Source of the DNA: a virus
Taxonomy: Duplodnaviria > Caudoviricetes
Direction: 5' to 3' (one strand)
Virus record (IMG/VR): IMGVR_UViG_2912874417_000004
Coordinates: 66,194-130,193 of that record
Length of the DNA stretch: 64,000 bases
The translations under genes and the position numbers were made by a program. The notes beneath the pieces are model-generated. The model was not told the DNA's origin. It ran no database searches and worked only from the letters and a program-made list of their open reading frames with translations. This document shows, piece by piece, positions 1,167-60,160 of the stretch. Every line of letters starts with the position of its first letter. Position 1 is the stretch's first letter.

Positions 1167-1229
1167 AAACTTTCTCCCCTAAGGAATAATGTCTAAATAA
1201 AATGATTATTTCTCGGCCTCACTCATTAG

Positions 1230-1361
1230 TTAAAGACGCTTCCATTCGACATACTCAAATCGCTGCTGATAAAGGTCTTCCAGGATTGCGGCCCATTCAA
1301 CCCAGCCATCCGCAACAATACTTTTCTTCTCCCCATCCTCAATCCATTCAATCCAGTACAC
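1230..1361 (-). CDS. yopG: YopG-like small protein (43 aa)
   Basis: GTG start after GAGGAG; MYWIEWIEDGEKKSIVADGWVEWAAILEDLYQQRFEYVEWKRL; size and position after the yopE/yopF-like genes. Confidence 0.65.
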   Translation of the reverse strand: MYWIEWIEDGEKKSIVADGWVEWAAILEDLYQQRFEYVEWKRL

Positions 1362-1372
1362 CTGAACACTCC

Positions 1373-1588
1373 TCACCTAGTAATAACTTCAATTTGTCTT
1401 ATAGCAGAAGTGGCTTTAAACTCTGCATGTAGCTCGTTTGCAATCACTAAAGCTTCTGACATTGTAGTGAACTTAGAAGCGCCATGAAGCCCCTTAGATG
1501 TCTTATAACCACTTCCATCTAATTTAAATGACTTGAAGTAATCATCATTTTCAAATTGAATAACAAAAAAGGTATCGATAACCGGCAT
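1373..1588 (-). CDS. yopF: YopF-like hypothetical protein
   Basis: 71 aa; RBS AGAGGAG; synteny and size match SPbeta yopF. Confidence 0.65.
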   Translation of the reverse strand: MPVIDTFFVIQFENDDYFKSFKLDGSGYKTSKGLHGASKFTTMSEALVIANELHAEFKATSAIRQIEVITR

Positions 1589-1590
1589 AG

Positions 1591-1842
1591 CTAACTCCTC
1601 TTTAGCAAACCAGCAATTTTTATAGCCAGTGGCAGCAATCCAATTAATATGTAAAACACCATGATATTTATTTTATTCTTAAAGAACAGTTCAATCATAT
1701 TCTGCTCCATACCTGGTGAAAATGAATCAATCAGTTCCTGCTTAAACTCTTCATCATAAACCTGATCAACAAATAAGGCCTTAAATCCTGTCAGAAAGCC
1801 TACACCAAGCCAGACTATTAAGAAATATGCTATTCCAATCAA
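1591..1842 (-). CDS. yopE: YopE-like membrane protein
   Basis: 83 aa; two hydrophobic segments; AAGGAGGG RBS; synteny. Confidence 0.65.
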   Translation of the reverse strand: MIGIAYFLIVWLGVGFLTGFKALFVDQVYDEEFKQELIDSFSPGMEQNMIELFFKNKINIMVFYILIGLLPLAIKIAGLLKRS

Positions 1843-2634: not shown

Positions 2635-3186
2635 TTATTTCTTATTGCCAAGCATGAATAATAAGGTACCCTCTGTGCCAATCAATTCATACTTTATTCC
2701 ATTTTTAGAGGCGGAATGTTTTGTTCCTGTCTCAATTACATTATTAAAATTTAATTCATTTAAAATTAATCGTTCCTTATCTTCATCAGAAAGTTTTGAA
2801 TCTGCTACACTACTTAATGCTTTCATTATTTCTTGGTATTGCCCCAAGGAAATTTCATCCATCTGATTTGAAGGAAGGCCAATAACACCATAGGGAAAAA
2901 TGATACGGTCTTTACTATCTACAGATGCCGTAATTGTGAAACCGTTCCATTTGGCCATATAGACAGATGACCCATCATTAACCTTCTCAATTTTCGAATC
3001 ATTAATATCAATAACTCCGTTTGAAACTTTGTATATTTTATCTTGAAACTTCTCCTGTGTTAATCCTGAGCTTCTGCCAAACACGAGGTACCCAACAGTA
3101 GCGATTACAACAATAGCGATTATCAATCTCTTATGTCTATTGATTACCCTCCAAATATTATTAGTTGTATCTGTAAGCTGGTTCAT
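2635..3186 (-). CDS. membrane-anchored extracytoplasmic protein
   Basis: N-terminal basic residues plus TM helix (RLIIAIVVIATVGYLVF); AAGGAGTG RBS. Confidence 0.75.
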   Translation of the reverse strand: MNQLTDTTNNIWRVINRHKRLIIAIVVIATVGYLVFGRSSGLTQEKFQDKIYKVSNGVIDINDSKIEKVNDGSSVYMAKWNGFTITASVDSKDRIIFPYGVIGLPSNQMDEISLGQYQEIMKALSSVADSKLSDEDKERLILNELNFNNVIETGTKHSASKNGIKYELIGTEGTLLFMLGNKK

Positions 3187-3288
3187 TAATTCACTCCTTC
3201 ATATCTACGTTCTAAACACGTTTTCATGTTCTGATGATTGTTTTTCGTTCCACAGTTGTCTTAGTTCCACATAAAAGAATGATTTTAT

Positions 3289-3666
3289 TTAAACATTGCA
3301 TTTATTGTATTCGTCAAAATCCGGAAAGATAAGCCAGTCATTTGTCATCAACTCGTCCACTTTTTGCAAAAATTCTTTTGATCTGGCTTTCAATTTAAAA
3401 TTACCGTCTCCACCATAAAATTCGCTCAAACCTTCATAACCGCCTGATTTGTAGCCTGATCTAAAACATCTCCCATCAAAATTCTTATTGTTACCTGCCT
3501 TTTCTGCATCTATAATTCCACGAGTTTTTTCCTCTATTGCTTCAAAATTGTAACTCTTCGCAATCCGGTTTACCTCTGTCAACCTGGAGATGATTTCATC
3601 TGACCAGTTGCCCCTTACATCTCTTAGAAGTGCTTCCATTAAGATGATTTCTTCTTGTTTTATCAT
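3289..3666 (-). CDS. hypothetical phage protein (start corrected to ATG 3666)
   Basis: GAGGAGG RBS precedes MIKQEE...; the longer ORF overlaps the upstream gene. Confidence 0.7.
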   Translation of the reverse strand: MIKQEEIILMEALLRDVRGNWSDEIISRLTEVNRIAKSYNFEAIEEKTRGIIDAEKAGNNKNFDGRCFRSGYKSGGYEGLSEFYGGDGNFKLKARSKEFLQKVDELMTNDWLIFPDFDEYNKCNV

Positions 3667-3697
3667 GGTCTTTCCTCCTCTAATTAAGTTTGCGTTC

Positions 3698-3889
3698 TTA
3701 CTCCATAACCTTCCCTTCAAGTACAACCTCACTTGCTGTCCAAGTGATCTCATTAACTCCATTCTCATCCATCAAGGTTTTCGCTTTACTATCCGCGCTC
3801 ATTTTTAGGTCTTCCAAACTTTCGGCTTTAATTATATCGGATAATAGCATATAGTCCTGATCGTAAAATTTTACTGAATAATCCTTCAT
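3698..3889 (-). CDS. hypothetical phage protein
   Basis: 63 aa acidic ORF with AGGAGAG RBS. Confidence 0.65.
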   Translation of the reverse strand: MKDYSVKFYDQDYMLLSDIIKAESLEDLKMSADSKAKTLMDENGVNEITWTASEVVLEGKVME

Positions 3890-4000
3890 GTTTTCTCTCT
3901 CCTATTCCATGTGAAAGTACGATTTTATAAAAATAGCCTGCAATTCTCTTTCATGTCTACTGCAGGCTTCTGTAAAATTCTCACTTAGTTCTGCCCTAGT

Positions 4001-6142: not shown

Positions 6143-7237
6143 TTGATGAACGTAAAACATTCTAACTGTTTCTTTGTTATCAGGCTGGTTGCTGCTCTTT
6201 GTGTGCTTATTGGTCATGCTACAAGAGATTTAAACATTTCTGTCTTTGGTTATTCCCCAGAGAGTAAAGCAATATTTCACACCGGCATATCAATTTTCTT
6301 TTTTCTAAGCGCATTTTTTCTTTTCACTTCCTATGAAAGATACAAGACCAAAGGAAACAACGTAATCGATTTTTATTGGAGCAGAATTATAAGGATCGCA
6401 CCCGCAATATACACCTATGCTATTGCCTCCACTGTGCTGCTAATTGTTCTGGGAGCTCTTTCATTAACGGTATTCACTGCTAAAGAGTACTGGATATGGC
6501 TTCTGAGCAATCTTGTGCTATACCCTCAATACTTCCCTGACATATTCCATCATATTGGCACAGGTCGCCTTAACGATTCACTTTGGACAATTCCTGTTCA
6601 GATTAGCTTTTATCTTGTGTTACCCGCAATTTATTGGTTTTATAAACGTTTCGGATTTAAAAAAATGATTCTTTGCTCTTTTGCTGTTTCCGCTTTCGGT
6701 GTGTTGGGTTCTTTCATATTATTAAAATTCGCACCGGGAAGTGTGTTCGGTAACCTGTACTTACATTCATTCCTGCCGCAGATGTTTTATTTCACTTTGG
6801 GAATCTTCTGGGCTAAGGTATGGAGCAAGTTACCGCAGCATATCGTTTTATTTTTATGTTCTATTATTTTATTTTTATTCTTTAAATTTGACCTTCTATA
6901 TCTCAGCTCAATAAACAGCACATTATGGAGCTTTTTATGGTTCATTCCCTTGAGCTATGCAATCATTTGGTTCGGGTACAATGGGCCGAAGATATTTTGG
7001 CAGCTGAACCGGTTAGATGATATCAGTATGGGGATTTTCATATGGCACATGGTGATCATCAACATCTTCTTATACACTGGAATTAATGAAACATTGTCTG
7101 ATTACCCGCTGATTATAGTTCTAATTGCTGTTACTGCTGCATCCGCATTTCTTTCTTACAGAATAGTGGAAAAACCCGCTCTTAAATTACGTAATATCAA
7201 GAAAAACAAACCGGTCAAAACAAGGATTGCAAGCTAA
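6143..7237 (+). CDS. acyltransferase family 3 (OafA-like O-acyltransferase), integral membrane
   Basis: IRLVAALCVLIGH, FFFLSAF, RIIRIAP, SLWTIPVQ, ISMGIFIWH and SYRIVEKP motifs; about 10 TM segments. Confidence 0.9.
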   Translation: MMNVKHSNCFFVIRLVAALCVLIGHATRDLNISVFGYSPESKAIFHTGISIFFFLSAFFLFTSYERYKTKGNNVIDFYWSRIIRIAPAIYTYAIASTVLLIVLGALSLTVFTAKEYWIWLLSNLVLYPQYFPDIFHHIGTGRLNDSLWTIPVQISFYLVLPAIYWFYKRFGFKKMILCSFAVSAFGVLGSFILLKFAPGSVFGNLYLHSFLPQMFYFTLGIFWAKVWSKLPQHIVLFLCSIILFLFFKFDLLYLSSINSTLWSFLWFIPLSYAIIWFGYNGPKIFWQLNRLDDISMGIFIWHMVIINIFLYTGINETLSDYPLIIVLIAVTAASAFLSYRIVEKPALKLRNIKKNKPVKTRIAS

Positions 7238-7289
7238 CCGCAAGGGCTGTTCTTATGTAGGCAGCCCGAATCCTGTTTAGCATGAAATG

Positions 7290-7445
7290 GTGTTTTTATT
7301 CAGAGTCTTGGGAACAAGAACTATTTCCCGCTCAATTTCATCTTTGTATAGCTTTTTGACTCTCGGATAATCACGATCAATATATCGGACGCTGGTCTTC
7401 ATTTGTCTAATAGCGGGCTTAAAATTTGTATAGTAATTTCACGCC
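7290..7445 (-). pseudogene. decayed XRE (YopB-like) HTH relic
   Basis: Hand translation NFKPAIRQMKTSVRYIDRDYPRVKKLYKDEIERE aligns by eye with 4570-4815 ([38 protein letters not shown]); no intact N- or C-terminus. Confidence 0.45.
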
Positions 7446-7604
7446 TTAGTTATTTCCGATCACTTTTAACGGTCATTAAGTTTACAATAATGACAAAGGC
7501 TTTTTAATTTCATGACCCTGTTAAAACATTAGATAGAATAATTATCTGAGTCTCAAACCCAATAGTTCATTAGGTTCTCTTATGAACTCCATGGTTGACT
7601 CATC

Positions 7605-8522
7605 CTATTCTTTATACTCTTTTTTAATTACTTCACCTTCAGTACTGAAAGTCCACTTATCTATGTCTTCTTTGAAAATAAGTTTGTCAATAGTGCCATC
7701 AAGCACTTTAAATACCATTAAAGCTATCTTCTCGCCTACACCAATGATATTTTCCTCAACAACTAAACTAAAGGATTGTTCATAATTGAACCCCTTAATC
7801 CCAATGAGATTACCGTCTTGAAGAATATATTTTAAATCATCGAAAGGATGAAAACCCTTAATTTTGCAATTAGAATTTTTGTTTATATTTAAATTTCGAA
7901 AAACAGGCTCTAACACCGTTTTATAATTATCTTTGCGGTTTCCTTCTTTATCATAAAAATATGAATCTTTCGCACTTACACTTTTTGGTTCAGAACAGCT
8001 TTTTGGAGTATGAGCTTTAATCTTGTTACCAGTTGGTACAAATTCTATAAGCGGTGTATTTGGTACTACTATATTCATTTTTAAATGAATATTTTTTATC
8101 CTGCCTCCCCAATCAACTTCGCTAAACTCTCCAAGTAAGGCTAACTTTATTCCTTCATCTTCAGCAAAGTTTCTAGCCTCTCTTGTATACCCAACCGTGG
8201 TAACGATAAACGATTCGTCTGGTTTAATTTGCGAAACCGCTCCAAAGAAATCTCTTACAATACTTATACCCACTTTTTTATTAATATCCTTACATTCAAT
8301 CAGGATTCTTTTAGATTTCTCTGATCCTTTAGATTGGACGGTAACATCTATTTGATGTGTTGTCTTTTTCTCACCCCCTCTTAATTTCAAATCATGGATT
8401 ACTACATCTTTTTGATGCAATATCTTAAATACCATCGCAGCAAGTTTTTCATATTTAGTACCTAGCTTTAGTTTTTCATCTGCTATATGTTCATTATAAA
8501 TAAGTTCCATTCCTTCATCCAT
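7605..8522 (-). CDS. Mrr-like PD-(D/E)xK restriction endonuclease domain protein
   Basis: YEKLAA...QIDV...LIECKD...VGISIVRDFFG...IVTTVGYTREARNFA pattern of Mrr_cat. Confidence 0.8.
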   Translation of the reverse strand: MDEGMELIYNEHIADEKLKLGTKYEKLAAMVFKILHQKDVVIHDLKLRGGEKKTTHQIDVTVQSKGSEKSKRILIECKDINKKVGISIVRDFFGAVSQIKPDESFIVTTVGYTREARNFAEDEGIKLALLGEFSEVDWGGRIKNIHLKMNIVVPNTPLIEFVPTGNKIKAHTPKSCSEPKSVSAKDSYFYDKEGNRKDNYKTVLEPVFRNLNINKNSNCKIKGFHPFDDLKYILQDGNLIGIKGFNYEQSFSLVVEENIIGVGEKIALMVFKVLDGTIDKLIFKEDIDKWTFSTEGEVIKKEYKE

Positions 8523-8898
8523 CTTGATTCATCCCACCCCATGAGTAATTATGTTACATTATATACCAATATCAAACAACTTCAAACACTAATTCCTTGA
8601 GCTTCTAAGCCACCTCTATTATGTTTAAAATTCTTTTCTTTTAAACTGCTGTTTTATTAAAGGTGTTCATCAAAGTTTTCTACTATAAATGCGCTTTCAC
8701 CCTTTTCCTAAACTCAATAACTTATTTAGATAAAAACAACATACTGAACAAGCATTTTATATTAAGATATGTATACCTGTCTTTCGTTATTATATGTAAA
8801 GTTTTAGCTTAAATTAATATTTCCGAATTATAGTTAAAAATAATTTTATAGTATTAAAAGGGAACAGTTGTAGCTGTATCCCTTCGGTCAATAAATCT

Positions 8899-9822
8899 TT
8901 ATGATGGATAAGAAATGAAAGTCCAGAAATTACCTAATATTAACGGGTCATTGCGATCATCGCTCCAATAAATCCAAGCAGCTAGGGTACTATCTTCTCT
9001 TTGCTTCGTATAGGTTAGGTCAAATTTTGTATTTGTATTCCCTACACTAATTGTTTGATTGTTAGACCCAATAATCTGACCTGAAAGATCTTCCTGCAAA
9101 GCAATAATAACTGTTCGAGAGGCACCTTCAGTCCTTATAGTAGGTAAGAATCTATAATTCCCAGTTTTCCCTCCCATCGAGTAGTAAACATAATGATAAT
9201 CTTGTTCTGGTTTTGTACTAATCATGTAAAGATCATAGTCCCATGATTGATTACTTGTTCCTTGTCTATATTCTAATTTTACATCTGCATCTCGATTTTT
9301 CCAGTTTCTGTCGAACACTCGAATATCTGGGACACTTACTCCAGCTAGTATTTTATCGATATATTGTTTTACATCACTAGGTGTTCCAACATATTCTATC
9401 ACTGCCTCCACCGTAATCCGGATGTGTGCACCTGCACCAAATTGTTCTCCTCTAGCTGTTGCATTTCCTACAATTCTTCTTCTCAAGACTTGGTATTCCT
9501 CAACTTGGCGTCTAATATTATTCCATCTAGAATCTAAATCTACTGTTCCCCATATTTTAGCATATCTCCATTCAACATGTGCTTCTAGATTCCCCCTTAT
9601 ATCTTCCGTATTAATTATTCTATAACCTGCAGGTGCTGTCCCAGTGCTCGCTGTTGCGATTCCTCTGTTAACCTCCGTTATTTCTTTATGATTTATTAAA
9701 ATGTATCCTTCTGGCGGTTCATATTCTTTAGAATCCCTATCTGTTGTCGGCTGTGCCCCTCCTCTCGCTTCAGCATCTAAAGTAAAAGCAGTTACAGTTT
9801 CTCGATGTCCAATTTCAGGCAT
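8899..9822 (-). CDS. hypothetical beta-rich protein (307 aa)
   Basis: AAAGGTGA RBS; own terminator at about 8858-8885; no family recognised. Confidence 0.75.
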   Translation of the reverse strand: MPEIGHRETVTAFTLDAEARGGAQPTTDRDSKEYEPPEGYILINHKEITEVNRGIATASTGTAPAGYRIINTEDIRGNLEAHVEWRYAKIWGTVDLDSRWNNIRRQVEEYQVLRRRIVGNATARGEQFGAGAHIRITVEAVIEYVGTPSDVKQYIDKILAGVSVPDIRVFDRNWKNRDADVKLEYRQGTSNQSWDYDLYMISTKPEQDYHYVYYSMGGKTGNYRFLPTIRTEGASRTVIIALQEDLSGQIIGSNNQTISVGNTNTKFDLTYTKQREDSTLAAWIYWSDDRNDPLILGNFWTFISYPS

Positions 9823-10066
9823 ACCTAATCACCTTTCTAAATGTTCTTAGGTATTTTATTCAAATTGAATTCGACTGTTACATTTTTATGTGAATTCCTT
9901 CTCCGTATAATACTTTCTCCAAACCCTTTTCAAATTTATCCTGTATTTTCAGTCTCCACCCACTTATGCTAATTTAAAAATGATTTCATAGCTAAGTCCC
10001 TTTTTACAAAATAAATTCAATTGCTTATTCTGAGTTCATTACCTATCTTGATAAAATATGCATTTT

Positions 10067-10170
10067 ATTTTATTTTTGCTCTTAAAATATGTATACTTCT
10101 CTGTTGTTTTAACTTGATTTAAGTATAGCATGACTATTTTAAATAATCAATAACTATTTTATTTTTATTC
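10067..10170 (-). promoter_or_regulatory. sigmaA promoter module with operator boxes
   Basis: TTGATT(10150-10145)-17 bp-TATACT(10127-10122) with TG extension; boxes at 10067-10081 and 10156-10170. Confidence 0.7.
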
Positions 10171-10187: not shown

Positions 10188-11792
10188 TTATGATGTAAGC
10201 ATGAGAAGCTTCGATGTATCCAGGATATAATAAGAAGCGTTATTTACCGTTTCATTGTAAGATTGCGCACCCTCAAAATTATTGATTACGTCTTTTTCTT
10301 CTGCTGTCATATCCTGATATTTTACCTTGCCGTATGAAGGAGGAAGCCAATTTTTCTTTTGGCTGCCAAAGATATTAAATTTCTTTAGAATTTCCATATC
10401 TTTAAACTCGATGTGACATGTTCCTTTTTTATAGAAAGTTACATAAAAGTACTTTAATTCTATTTTTTTCGTTTCGCCGTAATGCTCAGCTAGCTTTAAA
10501 GTTTCATCTATGTTTATGTCTTCTGTTAACCCATTGTCAAGGTAATTGAAAACTTTTTCGATATCCTTCAACTTTTCTAAGACCTTGTAGTCTGTTGGAT
10601 TATACCGATCATCTAGCCAACTGCAATACCCGTTTAGTGGAATAATTATTTTTTTATTAATTTTATATGATTTATTTGTTTTCCACCCATTATATAAGTG
10701 CACATTTTTTGATGATTCATCATAGTAATGCTTGTGGCTAAATTCTTCAAAAAGGTTAAGTATTGTATCTTCTACGCCCTGTGTCATCTCTTTGCTCATC
10801 TGAATTCTTAATGTATAGATATTGAACAAAGAAAAGTCATAATCTTTTAATTCCTCAACGTGCTGCAAGTACTTTTGTTTCAGGTTGCTTGTAAAGAGCC
10901 CCATAAACTGATCATTGTTAAATAACGTATTCCAATACTTCGCCCTAATTTGTTTTATATATGCATTCTCTATGTCATTTTCTTCGGCATTCTTATCAAT
11001 CTGCAGCTTCAATATTGGAGCACTGTCTTCATTGAATCTATGCAGCATTAAGGGTTTCAAACTGTTGTATTCATTGATTAATTTTAAACCCGCTTTGATT
11101 TCATAGTTGAACTGTTCTACAATCCCTTTTATAAAGTCTGCATTCACTAACTGTGTTGCTTTATAATCCTCATTAATTCTATGTGACTCATCTTTTTTCA
11201 ATTCTTCTATTAGAACGCTGCTATATTCTTGTTTTTCAATGCTTATGTAAATTAGTGCTGTTTCAACTTCTGTGTTTCGTTCGGAGTTATGGAAAGCATT
11301 TTGAACATATTCAACTTCTGCATTTATTTCCTCTAGCTTACGAATGAGAAATTTCCTGTCATTTGAATACGGATTTTTTAATGTTTCGGCGTTTAACAAG
11401 CAAACAATTTGGCCAGATCTTTGTTGCTTCTCAATTAACTCAATGGCCTTTAATAAGTGTTTAGCACCGTTGCTAAAAGGTGGATTCATAAAAATCAAAT
11501 CGTACCTCTTGTAAGTGTTAAACGTCAGAAAATCATCTGCAATCACTCTGTAATCTTTGCCTTTAAGTATGTGTCGTAAGTTTTCATCTTGTTCAATTGT
11601 ATCAATGTCATATTTCGAATTCATTCTATAGTTGCTGGTGTTTTTAAATTGATTGTGAATAGCTTCTACTAAATTCCCTTTGCCTGCTGAGGGCTCCAGA
11701 ACGGAGTTAATGTACTTCCATTCTACTTTAGATGTCATTTTTCGGATTAACTGTGGTGGTGTCGGATAAAAATCCGGATTATCTTTAAACAT
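10188..11792 (-). CDS. N6-adenine-type DNA methyltransferase with DUF4942-like C-terminus
   Basis: FYPTP, VLEPSAGKG (SAM motif I), MNPPF (motif IV); C-terminal FYKKGTCHIEF. Confidence 0.85.
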   Translation of the reverse strand: MFKDNPDFYPTPPQLIRKMTSKVEWKYINSVLEPSAGKGNLVEAIHNQFKNTSNYRMNSKYDIDTIEQDENLRHILKGKDYRVIADDFLTFNTYKRYDLIFMNPPFSNGAKHLLKAIELIEKQQRSGQIVCLLNAETLKNPYSNDRKFLIRKLEEINAEVEYVQNAFHNSERNTEVETALIYISIEKQEYSSVLIEELKKDESHRINEDYKATQLVNADFIKGIVEQFNYEIKAGLKLINEYNSLKPLMLHRFNEDSAPILKLQIDKNAEENDIENAYIKQIRAKYWNTLFNNDQFMGLFTSNLKQKYLQHVEELKDYDFSLFNIYTLRIQMSKEMTQGVEDTILNLFEEFSHKHYYDESSKNVHLYNGWKTNKSYKINKKIIIPLNGYCSWLDDRYNPTDYKVLEKLKDIEKVFNYLDNGLTEDINIDETLKLAEHYGETKKIELKYFYVTFYKKGTCHIEFKDMEILKKFNIFGSQKKNWLPPSYGKVKYQDMTAEEKDVINNFEGAQSYNETVNNASYYILDTSKLLMLTS

Positions 11793-11838
11793 TTTGTGCT
11801 CCCCTTTTTAGGGAATGAGATGTTTTCCCATCCCCTCA

Positions 11839-13725
11839 TTAGTTTATAGACTTATATGTGTTGATTATTGCTTTGAAGCTTTTTTTATTTAAATAACCTA
11901 AAACCTCATCGAATTGTCTTTTGTCGCAAGAGTGGTACTTACTATGAATTATTTTCATTCCATCTGGTTTAACCTCTACATTATTCAATACTGTTTCGGG
12001 AAGTGAGTGCCACCCTTTGAACATCAATAATTCTGAATAGAAGTGACGATAATATAATTTTCTTTTACTTTCAGGACGGTATGTCAACTTGACTGCATTA
12101 TCATATTGGGCATATTTAGTTGGCCGGTAACTGTCATATGTTATTCTTTCAGTAATTAAAGAGCCAAGATCAGATATGTAAAACAGAGTATATTTTTCAC
12201 CTTTTTCAAGATCAACATTTTTAAATTGTTCTTGAATGCTGTCAACTTCATGGAGAATTCTGTATAACGAAATTTTCAATTCTTCTATATCTACTTGTTG
12301 GATAATTTTTTTCTTCAACTTCAAACTTCTAAACTTCAACTTTTCTTTAAATAAAGATTTATATTTGCTCCAGTCTTCCTTTTTCCAGGTCTTATGTATA
12401 TTTAATTCCTCAATTACCGAAGTTGAAATATCTTCCAACACATCTGCTTGATATTTTAACTCCTCTAATTCTCCTTCTTTTAACGCTTGCTTATGAGAAA
12501 TTGACTTTTCAGTTTTTGCATTGTCCACTAAACCAACATACCTTGCATAAGAATGGCCTTGAGCGTCTACAATAAATTGCAATTTCCCGCCGTAGTACAC
12601 TCCTACGCCATATAAATTCCATTTAACTGTGTTCTTTTCTAAATCGTCCATATTGTAATAATCAATCATTGAGTTGATTCTGTTGTCTTCCGTAAAACTT
12701 CCACCGGTTTCCGCAAGAAAATCAAAATCATTTAAAAGCAAGTTAGAAAAGTTGGTTAAAGCTTCTTCAGTATTGAAATGCACTTCTTTTGTAATTTTCA
12801 CATTTTCAAGTCTGTAGTCACCTTTAACAACCTCGTCTTTATATTGATTAAGTGTTTGATTTTTGTTTAAGTTGGCAAACTGTGCATCAATAACAAAATA
12901 CTCTTGATCTTCATTCAATTGTTTTACTACAACGCTGCTATAGATATTTTCGGCTTGTTTCTTCTCTTCTCCTTGCCGTCTCTTATATTCAGCATTTTTA
13001 AGCTCTTGCTCTTTTAAATATTCCTGAAGTTCTTTTTCTTTTCTCGCTTTCTCGGCTTCTTCGAATTCTTCTGTCTTTGAATCAAACAGTGTCATATCTT
13101 CTTTAATTTCTTCTGTTTGTTCTGTCACTATATATTCCCAATCTAATGAAACACGACCATAGAAATTGTAACTACCTGCGTAATCAGTGTAAGGATCTGC
13201 TGGGCTGTAGCAATGGCGATAATTGTTTAAAAGGCTGTTGCAATAATCATAAATCGCAGTCAAATAAGCTGAGCCTTTTTCATAAGGACTTGATTTGATT
13301 GTGATGTTAATAGTGCTATGTGAATTGCTTCCCCCAGTAGTAACAGAGAATTTGCATTGTGGGAAACGTTGTCTTATATGCTTTCTTATTTCCTTTGCCA
13401 TTTCTTTTACTTCTTGTTCCTTATTTACTTCTACTTCACTCCATTGTGTTGCATCCCACAGACTCATTTTTACGCCCTTAGCTTTCTTTTTGGTTTTAGT
13501 GATTGTTTTAGAAGATGAGATTTCTTGTTTATTGACACCATTAGCGACCTGCATTGATTTTTCTGTCCGCTTGCTCCACCAACATTTTTTGAATCCAGAG
13601 TATCGAAAACCGTTTGATTTAAGATGAGTTAAAACCTCTTGTTCTGGTTTACTATCAAAATAAAGTTCAATTCCGTTTAACTCTTCGTTAATTCTTAAAA
13701 CAGCTGTCATTTTCAATCTCCCCAT
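11839..13725 (-). CDS. large polyvalent-protein-associated (LPD29-like) domain protein
   Basis: N-terminal NGIELYFDSKP...GFRYS..KKCWW module and AKEIRKHIRQRFPQCKFSVT module typical of polyvalent phage/plasmid proteins. Confidence 0.6.
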   Translation of the reverse strand: MGRLKMTAVLRINEELNGIELYFDSKPEQEVLTHLKSNGFRYSGFKKCWWSKRTEKSMQVANGVNKQEISSSKTITKTKKKAKGVKMSLWDATQWSEVEVNKEQEVKEMAKEIRKHIRQRFPQCKFSVTTGGSNSHSTINITIKSSPYEKGSAYLTAIYDYCNSLLNNYRHCYSPADPYTDYAGSYNFYGRVSLDWEYIVTEQTEEIKEDMTLFDSKTEEFEEAEKARKEKELQEYLKEQELKNAEYKRRQGEEKKQAENIYSSVVVKQLNEDQEYFVIDAQFANLNKNQTLNQYKDEVVKGDYRLENVKITKEVHFNTEEALTNFSNLLLNDFDFLAETGGSFTEDNRINSMIDYYNMDDLEKNTVKWNLYGVGVYYGGKLQFIVDAQGHSYARYVGLVDNAKTEKSISHKQALKEGELEELKYQADVLEDISTSVIEELNIHKTWKKEDWSKYKSLFKEKLKFRSLKLKKKIIQQVDIEELKISLYRILHEVDSIQEQFKNVDLEKGEKYTLFYISDLGSLITERITYDSYRPTKYAQYDNAVKLTYRPESKRKLYYRHFYSELLMFKGWHSLPETVLNNVEVKPDGMKIIHSKYHSCDKRQFDEVLGYLNKKSFKAIINTYKSIN

Positions 13726-17039: not shown

Positions 17040-18152
17040 TTAACGTTTTAGTCTCTTCAGTGCCTCCATATACGAGGTCTTTTTCGATTCCTTGTTCTCC
17101 AGTTTCTTCGGTTTAAATAAATCCTCTCTACGGCGATTCTTCGCTTTATAAACAGTTGTTTCTTTAACTTCAGTGTTCCCATTTTCAATTAAATCATCTA
17201 ACTGCTTCATTCGCTCATTGATCCAGGTTAATCCACTAAGAATCGTTATCGCCCTATTACCTTTATCATAATGCCCTTTAAATAAGTCTAGGGGCATCTT
17301 GTTATCAAAGACATTAAACAGCTCATTATACGATATATGCTCCGTTAAGAACTCATGAACATCCAGAATAACTCCAGCTCTCATCACATTTGTAAACTCA
17401 ACAGGAGTAAATATCGAATTGTTCCACGACTTCTGTATATCTTCATGTAGCTTATCAAAATACTTGCCCTCATTTGTAAATTCATTGAGGTTTGCTTGGG
17501 CAATAGTCATGATTCCTGGTGTATCAAACAGCTGATTTAAATCCTTCCTGTCTAAGGTGCTGATCTTTGATCCTCTGTCCGTGTAATTAAGTAAGACTTC
17601 AATTAAATCCAGGAACATTTTGTTTGTTTCCTTGTAGAGTCTGCTCTCTGAAATCTTTCCTTCGTATTTGCGAAAAACCATTTGATTATCCAAAGGTAAA
17701 ACACAGGTCTCTGGCAGAGATAATTCATCTAGTAGCTCCAGCGAATTAATCTGATTAACCAATACCTCATTGTTATCAGGAAGGATTGGAACAGCAACTA
17801 TGGTTTTATGAGCAAGGTATTCGTTTAACAATTCTAATAATATAGGAGCTACCCCTGAACCGGTTCCACCAGCTGCAGAGAAAGCAACAAATATGACTTG
17901 TACTGAAGGCTTTTCCATTGTGTTCTTTATAAACTCAATTGAAGATTCCCAGTTGTTTTTCATATGTTTCGCTGCTATGCTTCTGTCTTTACCTACTCCT
18001 TCTGTCCCTACCAGATGAAGCTTATCTTGAATATTGATTAATGAATTAAGGTCTGAAAGTGAATAATTTATTGCAACAGAATGAAATCCTCTCTTCATTG
18101 CTTCATCTGCTACACTTCCACCGGCCTGTCCAACTCCAATAAATCCAAACAT
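17040..18152 (-). CDS. tubZ: tubulin/FtsZ-family GTPase (TubZ/PhuZ-like)
   Basis: GVGQAGG, GVGKD, AAGGTGSG tubulin signature, LDN, T7-like TLDRKD; basic C-terminal tail. Confidence 0.9.
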   Translation of the reverse strand: MFGFIGVGQAGGSVADEAMKRGFHSVAINYSLSDLNSLINIQDKLHLVGTEGVGKDRSIAAKHMKNNWESSIEFIKNTMEKPSVQVIFVAFSAAGGTGSGVAPILLELLNEYLAHKTIVAVPILPDNNEVLVNQINSLELLDELSLPETCVLPLDNQMVFRKYEGKISESRLYKETNKMFLDLIEVLLNYTDRGSKISTLDRKDLNQLFDTPGIMTIAQANLNEFTNEGKYFDKLHEDIQKSWNNSIFTPVEFTNVMRAGVILDVHEFLTEHISYNELFNVFDNKMPLDLFKGHYDKGNRAITILSGLTWINERMKQLDDLIENGNTEVKETTVYKAKNRRREDLFKPKKLENKESKKTSYMEALKRLKR

Positions 18153-40282: not shown

Positions 40283-40300
40283 TTATGATAATTTTAGATC

Positions 40301-41149
40301 ATGAAAAAAATAAAATTGATAACATTAACTATTGCTTTAGTCATACTAGGAGGATGTTCATTTAACGAAGTTGATTCATCAGCTTTAGGCTATGGGAAAG
40401 GAAGCAGTAAAAAATACGAGCCGCTAATGATTGCACACAGAGGCGCCTCGGAAATTGAGCCAGAACACACCCTACTCTCCTATGAACGAGCAATAAAAGA
40501 CAAAGCAGACTACATTGAAATTGATTTACGACAAACCAAAGACGGTCACCTAGTCGCAAACCATGACAAGACTGTTGATCGAACCACAAACGGTAAAGGG
40601 GAAGTTGAAGATCTTACATTAGATCAGATTAAAAAGCTGCGTACTGGAAAAGGACAAAAGATCTTAGCGATTGAAGAAATCATTAAAAAGTTTGGACAAA
40701 CTACAAACTACTACATCGAGACTAGAACAAACAACAAAGGCGAATTAGTAATGGAGAAAAAGTTAATTGACATACTTTCTAAAAATAAACTAATCGCTAA
40801 TAACAAAGTTGTTTTAGAGTCATTTAGTGACAAAAGTCTAAAGAAGTTACATAAGCTAAACAGTGATGTTCCTCTTGTTCAACTTTTGAAAGATGAAGAC
40901 ATTAAGCCGATGAGCAAATCAAAGCTAAACGAAATAAAAAAATATTCTAATGTTGTTGGCCCTAATGCAAAATTTGTTGGTAAAGGTTTTGTTGATTTAG
41001 TCCACAAAAACAATATGAAAGTACATGTGTTTTTTAACGCTGATAAAGAAAGAGCACTCACATCCAAAATGCTTAAGTTGAAAGTGGATGGACTATTTAC
41101 AAATAACCCAGCTTATACAGAGAAAGTTCTAAAAGAAGATTATAAATAA
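40301..41149 (+). CDS. glycerophosphodiester phosphodiesterase lipoprotein (GlpQ-like)
   Basis: Lipobox LGGC; IAHRGAS, PEHT, IEIDL..TKDG..VANHD, VDGLFTN motifs. Confidence 0.9.
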   Translation: MKKIKLITLTIALVILGGCSFNEVDSSALGYGKGSSKKYEPLMIAHRGASEIEPEHTLLSYERAIKDKADYIEIDLRQTKDGHLVANHDKTVDRTTNGKGEVEDLTLDQIKKLRTGKGQKILAIEEIIKKFGQTTNYYIETRTNNKGELVMEKKLIDILSKNKLIANNKVVLESFSDKSLKKLHKLNSDVPLVQLLKDEDIKPMSKSKLNEIKKYSNVVGPNAKFVGKGFVDLVHKNNMKVHVFFNADKERALTSKMLKLKVDGLFTNNPAYTEKVLKEDYK

Positions 41150-41164
41150 AATACAAGTTTTATT

Positions 41165-41198
41165 TAGACACCTCTCCCCTTTTGAGGTGTCTTTTTTA
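41165..41198 (+). terminator. intrinsic terminator
   Basis: AGACACCTC-loop-GAGGTGTCT plus T run. Confidence 0.75.
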
Positions 41199-41231
41199 AT
41201 GAGTTCAGAGGATATATAAGGAGGAAATGAG

Positions 41232-41717: not shown

Positions 41718-42133
41718 TGGCCAAGAACATAAAGGAAATAGCAGCACTAATTGAATTTGCCGCGAAGCAAGCCGTTCAAAAACAATCCAGCACAAAAAAT
41801 ACGATGATTAAAACAGGTCAAGAGCATGTGCAATCTGATGTATATGACACATACGATCCTCTTGTATATGAACGTACTTCTCTTTTGAAGGACTCCTTCG
41901 TCATTCAAAATGAATCTAACGGAATTTCATTAGACAATACCCGTGAAGACAACGGTAAGGATGTTGCCACGGTTGTTGAGACTGGTCAAGGGTACACGTA
42001 TCCAGATAAATACGGTTATGGTTATGGAAAACCTCGCCCATTTATGAAGAATACCGCTGAATCGTTAAAAGATGGACGATTAGCTACTGCTATGAAAAAA
42101 GATTTAAATACAAGTGGTATTAAAACAGAATAA
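41717..42133 (+). CDS. YomN-like tail completion protein
   Basis: YERT..L...KPRPFMKNT motif (HK97 gp10-like). Confidence 0.6.
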   Translation: MAKNIKEIAALIEFAAKQAVQKQSSTKNTMIKTGQEHVQSDVYDTYDPLVYERTSLLKDSFVIQNESNGISLDNTREDNGKDVATVVETGQGYTYPDKYGYGYGKPRPFMKNTAESLKDGRLATAMKKDLNTSGIKTE

Positions 42134-42146
42134 CGGTGGTGTATTA

Positions 42147-43166
42147 ATGGCCAAGATCAAAAAAGTGCGCTATTTCACCAAAGAAAGAAAAGCACTTATC
42201 TCAAAAGAAAACAGAAAGAAATACGATAAGTATCTCAATAGCAACATAATCAAAAACAGAGATGTAAAAGACACTACCTATAAGGTTTACAGCAATTATA
42301 TGGATCAGTTTTTGGTTTATCTTGCTGAAAAATGGTCTAATATCGATCTGTATTCTGAAGAATTCATGGAAGATGCAGTGGATATTATGGAGGGATACAT
42401 TAGCTTCTGTCAGGACATCCTTTTCAACAACAAAAAAGTAATCAATACTAAGCTTTCGACAGTTTCGAGTTTTTATCTTTGGAGTCTTAAACGTGGATAT
42501 ATCGATAAACACCCCTTTGATAAAAAACTTGACCGTATGAAAGGTGCAAATGAAGAAAAAATCATCAACTCTTATTACCTCGATGATGAACAGATGAACC
42601 TCATAACTGAAACCCTAAAAACTGACCCGAAATTTGATATCCAAGACAAGCTAATATGGTCTATAATGCTGGATTCAGCTAACCGAATCGGGGCTATTTC
42701 CAAGCTTACTATCCAGGCTCTTGATCTAGATAACATGGTTTTTAACGACATACGAGAAAAACGCGGGTACAAGGTTGAAGTGGCATTTAATGATTACAGT
42801 AAAGAGCTTATACTTGAATGGTTAGAAATGAGAAAAGAAATGGATAACCTCGAAGTCGATTCCCTATTCATTACTAAATACGGTGGTGAATATCGTCAAA
42901 TGTCAAAAGGCACTATTCAAGACCGGGTTACCAAGATCGGAGAAATTCTTGGGCTCGATGATTTTCATGCTCACTGTATCCGAAAAACTGCCCTCAATGA
43001 TATCTACGTTAAAACTGGCGACCTCTCTCTTGCTGCTGAAATGGGAAATCACAAATCCGTTGAAACCACCCGTTCGAGCTACATTAAACCTCAAACAAAA
43101 GCTGAAGTCCGCCAGAAGATCATTAAAATGAAACAGAAAATGCAGGAAAACAAAAAGAAAGATTAA
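42147..43166 (+). CDS. yomM: tyrosine recombinase (YomM-like), catalytic residues intact
   Basis: SANRIGA (R), REKRG (K), HCIR (HxxR), GNH (H), SSY (Y). Confidence 0.85.
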   Translation: MAKIKKVRYFTKERKALISKENRKKYDKYLNSNIIKNRDVKDTTYKVYSNYMDQFLVYLAEKWSNIDLYSEEFMEDAVDIMEGYISFCQDILFNNKKVINTKLSTVSSFYLWSLKRGYIDKHPFDKKLDRMKGANEEKIINSYYLDDEQMNLITETLKTDPKFDIQDKLIWSIMLDSANRIGAISKLTIQALDLDNMVFNDIREKRGYKVEVAFNDYSKELILEWLEMRKEMDNLEVDSLFITKYGGEYRQMSKGTIQDRVTKIGEILGLDDFHAHCIRKTALNDIYVKTGDLSLAAEMGNHKSVETTRSSYIKPQTKAEVRQKIIKMKQKMQENKKKD

Positions 43167-43431: not shown

Positions 43432-43786
43432 CATCACTCTTTATGAAATCCCTCTTTTATGCAGAATCAAGATCCTTCAACCGAGGGATTTTGCTTACGT
43501 GTAAAAACAGCTATATTAACATTAATGATAAATTAAATGGGAGACCTCCTCAATGAGAAGAACAGATGAAGTCATTGAATTTATTGAGAATTTTTTGAAT
43601 TAGAAGAAAGGTAAAAAGTCATTTCCTAAGACCATTTAGCAGGTTTACTTTTTTATGATGAAAAAACGGGTCTATTTTTGAATATTCCGAAGGTAATGCA
43701 ATCAAGCTTGATATGAATGCTAAATAGGCTATTATAGTAACTAATGTGTTATTATGGAATCACATTAGTTACAGGAGTGATTAAAA

Positions 43787-56591: not shown

Positions 56592-56611
56592 GAAAGGACG
56601 GTGAATTTAGT

Positions 56612-57430
56612 TTGGATTTTCCTCAGCTCTATAACGACCCTACACTTTCTCAAAAAAGGAAGGGTTCAATCGATGACCCTTATTTAAGCTATAGTGAAAC
56701 TTTAACTGTTTACAATGGTCGAGTCTTACTTACAGAAGTGCCTAACCGTGAGTACAGGGTCGAGGTTAGTGGTGACAGTAAAGAATGGCGAGAAATTGAA
56801 GATGGTGAATTAGAAGACAACTACTTTAAGGTTGATTATCTTATGGGAGTTGTCTTTTTCAATGGTTCAAATGAAGGCAAATCACTTACTTTTACATATC
56901 AAGGAGAAGGCGCATCCTTCTTCCCTGCCTCAAGAATTTGGATTAAACGACAAGGAAATATGGTCATTGAAACGCTTCAAGGCTTAATTGATGATGCTGA
57001 AGATGCCATTATTCGTATCAATGAACGTATTGCTGAATGTGAACGTGTCACCAAGCGATGTATTGAAATAACAAATTGGTGCAGACAAGCAACATCAGAT
57101 TATGAATATGTAGTTGAAAACACTAGGAAGATTTACAAACCCTCTGTTTATACATTCGCAGATATACAAACAACTTACCCCAATCCACTTATAGGATGGA
57201 CGGTTGCTGTAAAAGAAAACAAAACCGTGTATAGATGGGATGGTTTTGATTGGATTGATATTGGAACTTCGGAAGCTTACGAAGGTTTCAATATCTTATT
57301 AAGCGCTGTAGAACCTTTCAATACTAATTATGTATGGTATCAGGATGAAGGCTTAATTCCAGAAAAACAAAGAGTTGTTATATCAAACGTTGCTCCAGAA
57401 TCAGGTGCAGTTTGGTATGAAATTGATTAA
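56612..57430 (+). CDS. YomF-like tail/baseplate protein
   Basis: 272 aa; synteny. Confidence 0.6.
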   Translation: MDFPQLYNDPTLSQKRKGSIDDPYLSYSETLTVYNGRVLLTEVPNREYRVEVSGDSKEWREIEDGELEDNYFKVDYLMGVVFFNGSNEGKSLTFTYQGEGASFFPASRIWIKRQGNMVIETLQGLIDDAEDAIIRINERIAECERVTKRCIEITNWCRQATSDYEYVVENTRKIYKPSVYTFADIQTTYPNPLIGWTVAVKENKTVYRWDGFDWIDIGTSEAYEGFNILLSAVEPFNTNYVWYQDEGLIPEKQRVVISNVAPESGAVWYEID

Positions 57431-57471
57431 AGGAGACTTCGATCGGGTCTCTTTTTTATGGAGGTAAATGA

Positions 57472-59997
57472 ATGGGATTTAAATATTACGACAAGAAAAC
57501 AGAGCAGTATGTACCCATGTCGATTGAATTACTCAAATCTGATGGGGTATCGTTCACTGCTCCTGAAATCAAAAAAGCTTTTGATACCGCTTCTCAAGAC
57601 ATTACAAACGTAATAAGTACAGTCAATTCTAGTTTATCAGATATCAAAAACACTATTGGAGACATTTCAAAAATCCCTGCATCCGGTGCAACAATTGTTG
57701 ATAAAGTCTTAAATGAATTTATCAGACGAAGTGTCAATGTTCAGGATTTTGGAGCTAAGGGTGATGGTGTTACTGATGACACTGAAGCTTTCAAAGCTGC
57801 CTTTGCAAGTGGGAAACGAGAGGTTTTTGTACCTGCAGGTATTTATATGGTTCAAGGATTACATATCCCTTCTTATGTCAGACTTTACGGTGTTGGATCA
57901 GGGTCTATTATCAAGCTTCACCCAACTGCCGCCGGAACATCTTGTGTGTTAACCAATAGCGACTACACAAACGGAAACGAATATATCTTAATTGAAGACT
58001 TAGACCTCGATTGGAATTTAGACAAAAAGGATAATACCATTACAAACGGCACAAATGCAAACTGTGTGGGCATTGTTAACTCTAAATTTGTTCGGGTTAG
58101 AAACGTCAATGCTCGAAATCCAGGTGTGCATGGTTTTGATGTAAGCTCCCCTGTTTGGAACTCTTCCTCTGATGGCGCAGATCATTATCAGCCAAATGGT
58201 AGCAAATATGTTTGGATTGAAAATTGTACTGCAACTAATTATGGTGATGACGGCTTCACAACTCACTATTCTGACTACATCTTCTTCACTAACTGTTACG
58301 CCTATGACGCTAACGGATCTGCACACAGCAAAGGAGCTTCAAATTCAAACGGTTTTGAAATTGATGATGGCTCTAAAAATGTGTGGCTTGTGAACTGTTA
58401 CAGCCGAAAAAACTGCAGAGGTTTTGAAGTCAAAGCTCACAACAGAGCACCAGCAGCAAGAAACGTAAACTTAATAAACTGCTATTCCAAAAATGATATC
58501 CGCGCTTTCGACTTTAGACATATTGGCTTCCACCTAGCCTCCGAAAAAATCTCCACAAGTGCATTTGACATTAATGTTGTTAACTGCACTGCGAAGTCTC
58601 CAATCTTTAGTGACCTTTATAAAGAGTTGAGCCCACGGGCACTAGTAATCTCAGCTTACAGAAATGTCAACATTTCAAACTTTAACGCAATTGGAGACCC
58701 TTCTTATGATTACAAAGGAAATCCCGCAATCGCTACGCAATTTAAATCAAGAAACATCAATTTAAACAATCTCTCTATTTCTAACTTCAAAACAGCTGGA
58801 GCTGACATTTATGTATACGGTGGGGATCAAAAATCAGATAATGTAAATATTTCAAATGTAAATTGTTTTGAATCGGCGAGAATCGGTGTGCGTATTGGCA
58901 GTGGCACAGAAAATGTAAAGCTTATTAATGCAAGTTTGATAGGCGACGGGAAAGCTGACAGTATTGGTGTATATTGTTCTAATTCTCAGGTAAGCCTAAT
59001 GGGAATTTCAGTGGAAAAATACAAAAAGGCTGCCAGAATTGCAGGAGTTGATTACACTTTTGTACCAAATAATATAAAAGGCGGGACAAGGATTGCCACC
59101 TCTTCTGGAGTACCCAAATCTAGCACCGGCTTAATAGCAGCGTCTACTGGACAGCCTGAAGTATCAGGTGAAGCTTCTGCTGTTATAGGCACCACTGGTG
59201 GGGCAAAAGCAACTGGTGTTAGAACAGGAGTGTTTTCCTCTTCCGGAGCAAGTTCCGTTAGCGGTTCGCGTAGCACAGTCATGTCTTCAAACGAATCCCA
59301 CATTGAAGGCGATAATGTCTCACGAACTATCTTATCTTCGGGAGGAGTCAAACTCGGTACAAATGATCGCTATATGGTGGTTGGTGGATATGGTTCTACC
59401 CCATCAAGAGCGAATATCAAATGGATGCTAAACTCCATGAACGGAGATATAACATCTACCGGCAAGATGAATGGCGGAGCCACTTTCAGTGATTACGCTG
59501 AATATTTTGAAAGCCTTGACGGAAAAGCAATTCCGACAGGAACAATTGTCACTCTTGAAGGAGCTAAAATTCGCCCAGCGAGAAAAGGTGAAGATGTACA
59601 CGGAGTAATCTCCGAAACTGCAGGAACTATTTTAGGCGGAGCTGATATTCACTGGCAAGGTAGATATTTAAAGAATGAATTTGGTGGATACATATATGAA
59701 GATGTAGTCAACCCAGAAACCGGTGATGTTAAGAAACTGCCTAAAGTAAACCCTGAATGGATTGAAAAAATAGATTACGTCCCCCGTGAAGAACGCCCTG
59801 AATGGAACATAGTCGGCTTACTTGGACAGGTTTATGTGAAAGTGGACAGCACTGTTTCTGTGGGAGATCGTATTGAAGGTAATTATGGCATCGGCACAAA
59901 AACAGAAGACAGGTTTTACTCTTGGAAGGCTATGGAGATTGTAACCCCATATTCAGACAAGCTTGGCTATGGCATTGCCATCTGCTTAATTAAGTAA
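57472..59997 (+). CDS. tail spike/pre-neck appendage: pectate-lyase-like beta-helix with C-terminal autocleaving chaperone (YomE-like)
   Basis: VNVQDFGAKGDGVTDDT; beta-helix repeats; DYAEYFES...YVPREERPEWNIVGLLGQ peptidase G2 motif. Confidence 0.88.
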   Translation: MGFKYYDKKTEQYVPMSIELLKSDGVSFTAPEIKKAFDTASQDITNVISTVNSSLSDIKNTIGDISKIPASGATIVDKVLNEFIRRSVNVQDFGAKGDGVTDDTEAFKAAFASGKREVFVPAGIYMVQGLHIPSYVRLYGVGSGSIIKLHPTAAGTSCVLTNSDYTNGNEYILIEDLDLDWNLDKKDNTITNGTNANCVGIVNSKFVRVRNVNARNPGVHGFDVSSPVWNSSSDGADHYQPNGSKYVWIENCTATNYGDDGFTTHYSDYIFFTNCYAYDANGSAHSKGASNSNGFEIDDGSKNVWLVNCYSRKNCRGFEVKAHNRAPAARNVNLINCYSKNDIRAFDFRHIGFHLASEKISTSAFDINVVNCTAKSPIFSDLYKELSPRALVISAYRNVNISNFNAIGDPSYDYKGNPAIATQFKSRNINLNNLSISNFKTAGADIYVYGGDQKSDNVNISNVNCFESARIGVRIGSGTENVKLINASLIGDGKADSIGVYCSNSQVSLMGISVEKYKKAARIAGVDYTFVPNNIKGGTRIATSSGVPKSSTGLIAASTGQPEVSGEASAVIGTTGGAKATGVRTGVFSSSGASSVSGSRSTVMSSNESHIEGDNVSRTILSSGGVKLGTNDRYMVVGGYGSTPSRANIKWMLNSMNGDITSTGKMNGGATFSDYAEYFESLDGKAIPTGTIVTLEGAKIRPARKGEDVHGVISETAGTILGGADIHWQGRYLKNEFGGYIYEDVVNPETGDVKKLPKVNPEWIEKIDYVPREERPEWNIVGLLGQVYVKVDSTVSVGDRIEGNYGIGTKTEDRFYSWKAMEIVTPYSDKLGYGIAICLIK

Positions 59998-60160
59998 TCC
60001 CTCAAAATTAAAGGAGGTGGTTATGTTCTAGTTAAAATATAAGTTTTATTCAATTTACAGCATTCAAAAACAGAGATAACAAGAGCATACGTGAGATAAA
60101 GAGAGATTGGAATTTACCCCCTTCTCTCTTTTTTGTGCTCAAATTTAATTTTTAGGAGAG

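Follow-up and report, generated by a model that had tools for sequence, protein, structure and literature searches.

Core-type sites of tyrosine recombinases consist of inverted arms of 9-13 bp, recognised independently of each other, around an overlap of 6-8 bp. In the pdif modules of Acinetobacter plasmids, dispersed sites of 11-6-11 bp with conserved arms and variable 6-bp centres border accessory modules, and the action of a recombinase has been inferred from comparative genomics. Here, we studied a family of 28-bp palindromes with the same 11-6-11 layout in a 64,000-nucleotide stretch of viral DNA (the whole of which we call the window), the right half (66194-130193) of a 130,193-bp provirus from IMG/VR (record IMGVR_UViG_2912874417_000004). 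The gene order of the window is of the SPbeta type, and the prophage is SPbeta-like, from Bacillus. An initial annotation, made from the sequence alone, had noticed the palindromes at gene boundaries and proposed an integron- or pdif-like system that shuffles accessory genes. We put the chances at about even that the palindromes are dispersed dyad sites acting as fixed joints at which SPbeta-like phages exchange gene blocks in register. There is good support for the motif family and its dyad structure, for centres that are specific to the slot, and for the coincidence of the sites with exchange points.

The palindromes conform to the core-type plan, being dyads whose arms do not covary. Their likeness to pdif modules extends from the dispersed sites, conserved arms, and variable centres to the bordering of accessory modules, and in both cases it is comparative genomics that points to a recombinase. 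The dif consensus, as in B. subtilis and E. coli, has the inner ends ATAA/TTAT. The palindromes end inwardly in TAAAA/TTTTA, and their arms are symmetric mirror images with no XerC and XerD sides, so that the Xer/dif type first suggested for them holds for geometry and fails for the arms. They further differ from pdif in that they lie in a phage, are oriented with transcription, overlap stop codons, have slot-specific colinear centres, and are accompanied by phage-encoded candidate enzymes. With integron attC sites they share the many sites per array, the open reading frames (ORFs) that end in a site, the accessory cargo, and a tyrosine recombinase nearby. However, attC sites are 57-141 bp long, conserved in structure, and recombined as folded single strands, whereas the palindromes are 28 bp long and conserved in sequence, with weak folds and no pairing constraint between the arms, and an attC-like nature has to be given up. 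They also differ from integrons in having no attI/Pc platform, and each core is common to two neighbouring slots instead of belonging to one cassette. Heterospecific lox/FRT cassette exchange likewise relies on identical arms and differing spacers, where recombination of like with like keeps the register and prevents deletions between neighbouring sites; there, two engineered sites are served by a known enzyme, whereas each phage genome carries 30-40 natural palindromes and the enzyme is a candidate.

Short repeated elements of phages are a second group with which the palindromes can be compared. The PeSL of T4-type phages, reportedly described by Arbiol et al. 2010 as a sigma-70 early promoter plus a stable stem-loop that is thought to act via homologous recombination, are also short repeated motifs between genes, found beside small accessory ORFs where the genomes of large phages are plastic, and they mark modular shuffling. 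The palindromes differ from them in having neither a promoter consensus nor a stable hairpin, and in their strict dyad and position-specific centres; they abut the ribosome-binding site, which leaves no room for a -35/-10 promoter plus leader. The stoperators of cluster A mycobacteriophages, which Brown et al. 1997 are said to have described as asymmetric 13-14-bp sites of the immunity repressor and which are reportedly not known as exchange points, resemble the palindromes as 20-30 short, transcription-oriented sites in small gaps or over stop codons. The palindromes, in contrast, are symmetric and only mildly biased in orientation, and the known repressor of their phage family, MrpR, binds elsewhere.

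MrpR (YopR) is a repressor with a tyrosine-recombinase fold that binds the repeated element of SPbeta (SPBRE) at ten promoters (PMC10516654). Chromatin affinity precipitation sequencing (ChAP-seq) of MrpR gave only 10 peaks, all of them SPBRE, with no palindromes reported (PMC10516654). Both SPBRE and the palindromes are dispersed repeated intergenic elements of the same phage family, and SPBRE is bound by a protein of the tyrosine-recombinase fold; SPBRE differs in its promoter location, its copy number of about 10, and its core, AAAWAATATGTATA, which we derived de novo from the ten MrpR-bound promoters and which is unrelated to the palindrome. The idea that the palindrome is SPBRE was rejected on the basis of this de novo motif, no copy of which was found in the window at up to one mismatch. 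The decamer AATATGTATA, the SPbeta SPBRE core, is present at 10086-10095 (+), 13 bp from the palindrome at 10046, with one other window copy at 49275, and the MrpR homologue of the provirus may have an operator different from that of SPbeta. The palindromes are not members of the Xer/dif, attC, PeSL, or SPBRE families.

As a search pattern, the literal 28-bp consensus proved too strict: with up to three mismatches allowed, it matched the window at 3266 and 41141 only, and in most of the 12 copies of the initial annotation 6-8 of the 11 arm positions are complementary. It was replaced by an 18-bp core, ATAAAA-N6-TTTTAT, and by a position matrix trained on SPbeta sites alone, with sites of at least 16 bits taken as strong and the expectation drawn from second-order Markov sequences. 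The window contains four exact cores at N6, spacings of 0-12 being otherwise empty except for one copy at N11; with one mismatch there are nine copies at N6 versus 1-5 at other spacings. Among all 6-mer inverted repeats with spacers of 0-20, this core ranks first in the window (four copies versus 0.13 expected). The whole provirus contains 9 exact cores and 28 with at most one mismatch, and SPbeta 13 and 38, with 0-1 exact copies at other spacings and 1-6 relaxed ones in the provirus, or 1-9 over the two genomes. The SPbeta-trained matrix found eight strong sites in the window (3266, 7277, 10046, 32297, 38108, 41141, 43438, and 60027) versus 0.17 expected.

For the construction of a family-wide matrix, sites were oriented by their flanking genes (n = 49). 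The resulting consensus, TYT-NN-ATAAAA-N6-TTTTAW-NN-ARA, is conserved from -5 to +22 around a variable 6-bp centre and, together with the enrichment at N6 only, bears out the proposed 11-6-11 layout of conserved arms and variable spacer. Conservation also extends symmetrically to the outer TCT/AGA triplets (38/49 sites have T at -5 and 44/49 have A at +22), although these positions played no part in the selection of sites, so the 11-6-11 dyad is a real feature.

The motif extends well beyond this provirus. All 15 other large phage records tested, found via homologues of the YomM recombinase (down to 59% identity) or via one exact 28-mer, carry 3-21 exact cores versus 0-2 for a reversed control. 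In a 4.5-Mb Halalkalibacter genome, 10 of 13 cores fall on the prophage contig, and the prophage has about 80 times the motif density of the rest of the genome; thus, the motif belongs to the phage and not to the host. The exact core was not enriched in a Lysinibacillus prophage with a YomM 68% identical, in which a relaxed form, ATAAWA-N6-TWTTAT, occurs at 41 sites versus 4-15 at other spacings. Sites of this prophage (L076-L083, G012:C107) often combine one ATAAAA arm with one ATAATA arm, in either orientation, with N6 kept. The motif is undescribed in the full-text literature that we searched, which did not include Lazarevic et al. 1999.

The 6-bp centres are specific to positions along the phage chromosome. 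Orthologous sites were mapped by anchored mapping combined with same-spacer colinearity, which replaced a noisy projection from flanks. Between the provirus and SPbeta there are 13 same-centre pairs in perfectly inverse order (rho = -1.0), and with two closer relatives, G002 and G003, there are 24 and 21 in the same order (rho = +1.0), where chance would provide 0-1. At seven tightly anchored orthologous sites, 38/42 centre positions are identical to those of SPbeta, compared with about 70-93% identity in the flanking genes, and an identical centre is often accompanied by differing 5-nt outer arms. The 55-nt flanks of same-centre pairs are similar on the left, on the right, on both sides, or on neither in comparable numbers (6, 7, 4, and 7 with G002); this mixed conservation means that the core belongs to neither of its neighbouring genes. 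For instance, at three serial sites before yoqZ (centres CAGAGA, ACGATA, and GTAATT), the intervening genes differ or are absent among the provirus, G002, and SPbeta.

Breakpoints were analysed between the provirus and four whole relatives (G001, G002, G003, and G005) that are about 93% identical. Homology blocks have 343 ends in these comparisons, and a core is no more than 2 bp away from 32 of them, versus 1.7 for random positions and 11 for a model that places all ends at gene boundaries. A breakpoint is held by 22 of 26 junctions with the motif versus 61 of 186 without it (odds ratio 11, p = 5e-7), and the odds ratio is 4.9 (p = 0.01) when junctions are matched for length. Relative to the core, starts of blocks cluster at offsets -1 to +1 and their ends at +16 to +18, which indicates that the whole core is retained whichever side is replaced. 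Every natural and laboratory exchange point that we examined involves same-spacer sites; a crossover could lie anywhere within their identical 18 bp, and short-homology annealing predicts the same pattern. As had been expected, breakpoints of gene presence and absence among relatives fall at the sites.

Laboratory recombinants map to the same joints. Dragos et al. described 16 junctions between SPbeta and phi3Ts in evolved B. subtilis, 14 of which have 1.4-6.9 kb of homology, whereas junction 7 has 30 bp and N1 was called non-homologous (bioRxiv 10.1101/2020.05.06.055103). Junction 7 and N1, the only two without long homology, both map within 10 bp of same-spacer cores. Junction 7 (phi3Ts 62446) lies 7 bp past the phi3T core 62422-62439, which has the centre TGCATA in common with SPbeta 69423 and window site 10046. 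N1 (phi3Ts 107382, or phi3T 107922 after a 540-bp difference between the phages) lies 9 bp before the core 107931-107948, the 18 bp of which are identical to SPbeta 116414-116431. These placements were checked directly on the phi3T side, and the SPbeta-side coordinates fit only after an inferred offset. Both junctions show recombination at the sites and are compatible with a site-specific enzyme or with short-homology annealing. SPbeta and phi3T also share a 3213-bp block of 99.97% identity that starts at one core and stops inside another. Outside the homologous blocks, a further dispersed repeat, the 16-mer TAAAAATAAAATTACT, is found in five phi3T copies (76037, 90129, 107654, 107915, and 121048) and one SPbeta copy (79990), the copy at 107915 lying just upstream of the motif core at 107931.

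If the palindromes are fixed joints of the SPbeta-like phage chromosome, a dimeric protein would bind the 28-bp dyad, with arms that are the same everywhere and 6-bp centres that are position-specific. Related phages that meet in one cell would recombine at the same-centre copy, and the flanking gene blocks would be swapped in register with gene order kept. Upstream genes often extend into the left arm, where a TAA serves as their stop codon, and the right arm is followed by the next ribosome-binding site. The catalyst is most likely one of the two orphan tyrosine recombinases of the phage, YopP-like or YomM-like, and the centre would be the overlap region that needs to match between partners. 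The most economical reading is that such a candidate enzyme catalyses the exchange and that the centre serves as its overlap. We infer from the comparisons above that a protein binds the sites, which enzyme acts on them, and that strands are exchanged within the centre. A more specific version is that this is a natural multi-site cassette exchange, in which about 30-40 heterospecific sites per genome are acted upon by YopP or YomM, blocks are swapped in register between co-infecting phages and prophages, and deletions between neighbouring sites are blocked; this we hold tentatively, as plausible but somewhat short of an even call.

The provirus encodes two proteins with PF00589 matches, one YomM-like (window 42114-43166 (+), E = 9e-23) and one YopP-like, whose gene lies outside the window. 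The former is the tyrosine recombinase that had been called intact, correctly so: its catalytic residues (R, HxxR, H, and Y) are retained in the provirus and in nine relatives down to 56% identity. The catalytic set of YopP is intact in the provirus and in phi3T, and the YomM of phi3T has lysine at the second catalytic arginine. The YomM of SPbeta (L001:40301-41302) is below the PF00589 threshold and about 22% identical to that of the window, and SPbeta yopP is found at L006:28691-29767, with a product that has HxxK. We found no function for YopP or YomM in the literature searched. SPbeta itself integrates via a serine recombinase, SprA (PMC10516654).

Several observations weigh against dedicated, enzyme-driven joints. 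SPbeta has 39 sites, but both its YomM and its YopP carry lysine at the second catalytic arginine (HxxK). Two motif-rich SPbeta-type genomes, G014 and G017, have no window-type YomM, their only PF00589 match being of the YopP type, which makes YopP the more general candidate. In six genomes with 32-39 sites each, every centre is distinct within its genome, but this uniqueness is not significant, as only about 0.3 collisions are expected by chance, and it was dropped as evidence of selection. Motif junctions are mostly in accessory regions, and the contrast with other junctions is therefore inflated. Many exchanged blocks have only one end at a site, and the left breakpoint of a block at 39466-41144 that contains a GDPD gene falls within a gene. 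Three strong sites, 32297, 38108, and 43438, have no breakpoint at the core among the four close relatives, the first two lying inside conserved structural blocks. Finally, SPbeta and phi3T have 12 isolated stretches of identity of 18 bp or more in common, and 6 of these are motif sites; thus, annealing alone could explain both laboratory junctions with no dedicated enzyme, and these junctions fail to discriminate site-specific from short-homology recombination.

The rival that survives best is that the palindromes are operators or roadblocks of a DNA-binding regulator, perhaps a recombinase-fold protein such as YopP that no longer recombines, which punctuate prophage operons, with exchange a by-product of 18-30 bp of identity. 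We consider this unlikely, though a serious contender. A dyad with independent half-sites suits any dimeric binder. The gene context also speaks for a regulator: of 66 sites, 49 have co-directional genes on both sides, the sites shortly precede ribosome-binding sites, and in 53% of the co-directional ones the core is followed by a start codon at a distance of 15-45 nt. Orientation is slightly biased, as the downstream side reads TTTTAA in 18/49 sites and the mirror form is seen in 7/49. The lysines of SPbeta YopP and YomM and the high share of motif sites among isolated short identities fit as well, yopP has been reported among the genes active in lysogeny, and a tyrosine-recombinase fold acting as a repressor has a precedent in the same phage, MrpR (PMC10516654). 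However, a regulator would not need slot-specific centres that stay unchanged in every letter between phages with 70-80% identity in the genes that they share, and the core follows neither the upstream nor the downstream gene preferentially. Further, YomM and YopP have kept their catalytic residues over a wide range of divergence within the lineage of the window, and all 10 MrpR peaks fall on SPBRE, a different motif. A role as promoters of YonO, which has been reported to start one late transcript upstream of yonK, was rejected because sites are found in both early and late regions.

It is improbable, in our view, that the palindromes are boundary or linker DNA with no dedicated protein, at which crossovers are made by RecA or by phage annealing through the Sak4-like YorG, as has been proposed for T4-type PeSL and lambdoid boundary sequences. 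Breakpoints at the sites, laboratory junctions with only 18-30 bp of identity, and a phage-encoded Sak4-like annealing protein (YorG) and RecJ-like exonuclease, both in the SPbeta annotation, are what this explanation predicts. But pure homology needs no dyad, no fixed 6-bp spacing, and no conserved outer TCT/AGA, and it does not account for the same arms being kept in phages of Bacillus and Halalkalibacter and, in relaxed form, of Lysinibacillus.

An intercistronic, AU-rich hairpin with a role in the processing, stability, or translation of RNA, which had been offered as an alternative when the palindromes were first noticed, is less probable again, to the point of being very hard to maintain. 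In operons of co-directional genes, sites do follow a stop codon and precede the next ribosome-binding site, and the upstream stop codon is in the left arm in 18/49 co-directional sites, 10 of which use the TAA of ATAAAA. Yet convergent and divergent junctions carry sites too, and the arms show no pairing constraint. At the arm pair -4/+21, C:G and C:A are equally common (11 each), followed by T:A (10) and T:G (8), with no pair above shuffled expectation in a covariation test, and the outer core pair is an A:A mismatch in 18/49 sites. Predicted RNA hairpins of the eight window sites have -0.6 to -4.8 kcal/mol and are mostly no better than shuffles. The lack of arm covariation and the folding energies thus argue against the hairpin. 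Independent arms and weak hairpins point to a site on duplex DNA, most likely a 28-bp dyad whose two half-sites would be read by a dimeric protein. That the palindromes are a chance product of AT-rich intergenic DNA is already refuted for the strong sites by 3-21 exact N6 cores per genome versus 0-2 at other spacings or in the reversed control, by conservation of unselected outer positions, and by colinear spacers, and applies at best to several weaker copies of the initial annotation that are no better than background.

The window holds accessory and early genes on the - strand up to about 19 kb and structural genes on the + strand thereafter. It also has ORFs for a YonO-like protein of 841 aa and a tape-measure-like protein of 2312 aa; nucleotide identity to SPbeta is about 65-97% within shared blocks. 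The palindrome family as first listed holds for its six best copies and for 7277, all of which are strong, less so for 3906 and 8635, which are marginal, and for 1192, which is a half-site; the copies at 25906 and 26770 have no support as sites with the SPbeta-trained matrix, and the SPbeta orthologue of the latter has no motif. At 1192-1219 (-), one arm is perfect, TCTAAATAAAA (+ strand), and the other degenerate (matrix score 2.1). The homology blocks of all four close relatives stop within -3 to +18 bp of it, and it is probably a decayed or hybrid member of the family. The site at 3266-3293 (-; 24.4 bits; spacer GAATGA on the + strand) lies between the ORFs 3289-3768 (-) and 2635-3186 (-), and the stop codon of the upstream ORF abuts its core. 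Its spacer recurs at a colinear place in G002 and G003, and a block shared with G005 (3272-3906) begins at its core and stops 5 bp short of the core of the marginal site at 3906-3933 (-; 10.8 bits).

A variable slot is delimited by the strong sites at 7277 and 10046. The left one (7277-7304, +; 19.3 bits; spacer TGGTGT) lies 40 bp past an acyltransferase ORF (6143-7237); the blocks of G003, G005, and G001 stop within 1-7 bp of it, and its spacer is colinear in G002 and G003. At the right one (10046-10073, -; 18.3 bits; - strand spacer TGCATA), the homology shared with each of the four relatives begins inside the core, and the spacer is colinear in SPbeta (69423) and phi3T (62422). The 2.7-kb cargo between them (7305-10045, -) shows no similarity to what the four relatives carry in this slot. 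It encodes an Mrr-like nuclease (7605-8522; a Pfam Mrr_cat match, with a weak match to PADLOC PDC-S02) and a 307-aa protein (8899-9822) for which no family match was found, and these two genes (7605-9822) may form a defence module. The marginal site inside the slot (8635-8662, -; 10.5 bits) is without comparative support because the whole slot is unique to the provirus. Adjoining site 10046, at 10188-13725 (-), are genes for a 534-aa Dam-like methyltransferase fused to DUF4942 and for a 628-aa LPD29-domain protein. Farther on, at 17040-18152 (-), a 370-aa GTPase of the tubulin/FtsZ family (PF00091, E = 1e-19; Tubulin_2) adjoins a 122-aa ORF and is possibly a TubZ/PhuZ-like segregation or positioning protein.

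In the structural region, the site at 32297-32324 (+; 16.5 bits) separates two late structural ORFs, with the stop codon of ORF 31146-32300 in its left flank and the next start at 32341; it has the same spacer in G003 and lies inside conserved blocks of G003 and G005. The site at 38108-38135 (+; 26.6 bits) is at a yomT/yomS-like junction, preceded by a terminator-like hairpin, and 5/6 of its spacer is identical at the positional orthologue in SPbeta (44411). An exchanged block at 39466-41144 (+) comprises the C-terminal part of a tail-fibre-like gene, two small ORFs, and a GDPD gene (40301-41149; Pfam). Unrelated DNA takes its place in L008, L009, and L015, which are 93-94% identical on both sides, and the right breakpoint is exactly 41145, within the best site (41141-41168, +; 23.1 bits; spacer TACAAG). 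The GDPD stop codon is the TAA of ATAAAA, and in relatives an unrelated upstream ORF terminates on the same arm TAA; homology begins 1 bp before the core in G001, G002, and G005. Together with the 7277-10046 slot, this block confirms that sites border accessory genes.

A strong site that had been missed, at 43438-43465 (+; 19.0 bits; spacer TCCCTC), lies 270 bp past yomM. Homology islands of L012 and L013 begin exactly at its core (43443), and the same spacer is found at SPbeta 39880. GC-rich terminator-like hairpins follow directly after this site (43466-43506) and after 41141 (41169-41200), and in both cases motif plus hairpin forms an island of about 60 bp that relatives keep at 86% identity, against 68-74% for their flanking genes. 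The spacer of 43438, TCCCTC, is able to pair with a downstream GAGGGA. The last strong site, at 60027-60054 (+; 20.8 bits), lies between a Peptidase_G2 tail-spike-like gene and an amidase gene. Its SPbeta orthologue (24122) has 4/6 spacer identity, and the blocks of all four relatives begin 24 bp upstream of its core.

How large temperate phages hold their gene order and yet freely exchange accessory and defence genes is an old question, usually answered by illegitimate recombination followed by selection. The present result offers defined, sequence-specific joints in a tractable model, SPbeta and phi3T in B. subtilis, along with two orphan recombinases and laboratory recombinants that map to the joints. 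If the sites are regulatory, a model phage would still have an undescribed set of operators across its genome. Confirmation of an enzyme would make the palindromes a new class of site-specific recombination system in phages, explain what YopP or YomM does, and provide a natural multi-site toolkit for in-register DNA exchange. Our findings suggest that palindrome-based joints are an undescribed way in which genes are swapped in register.

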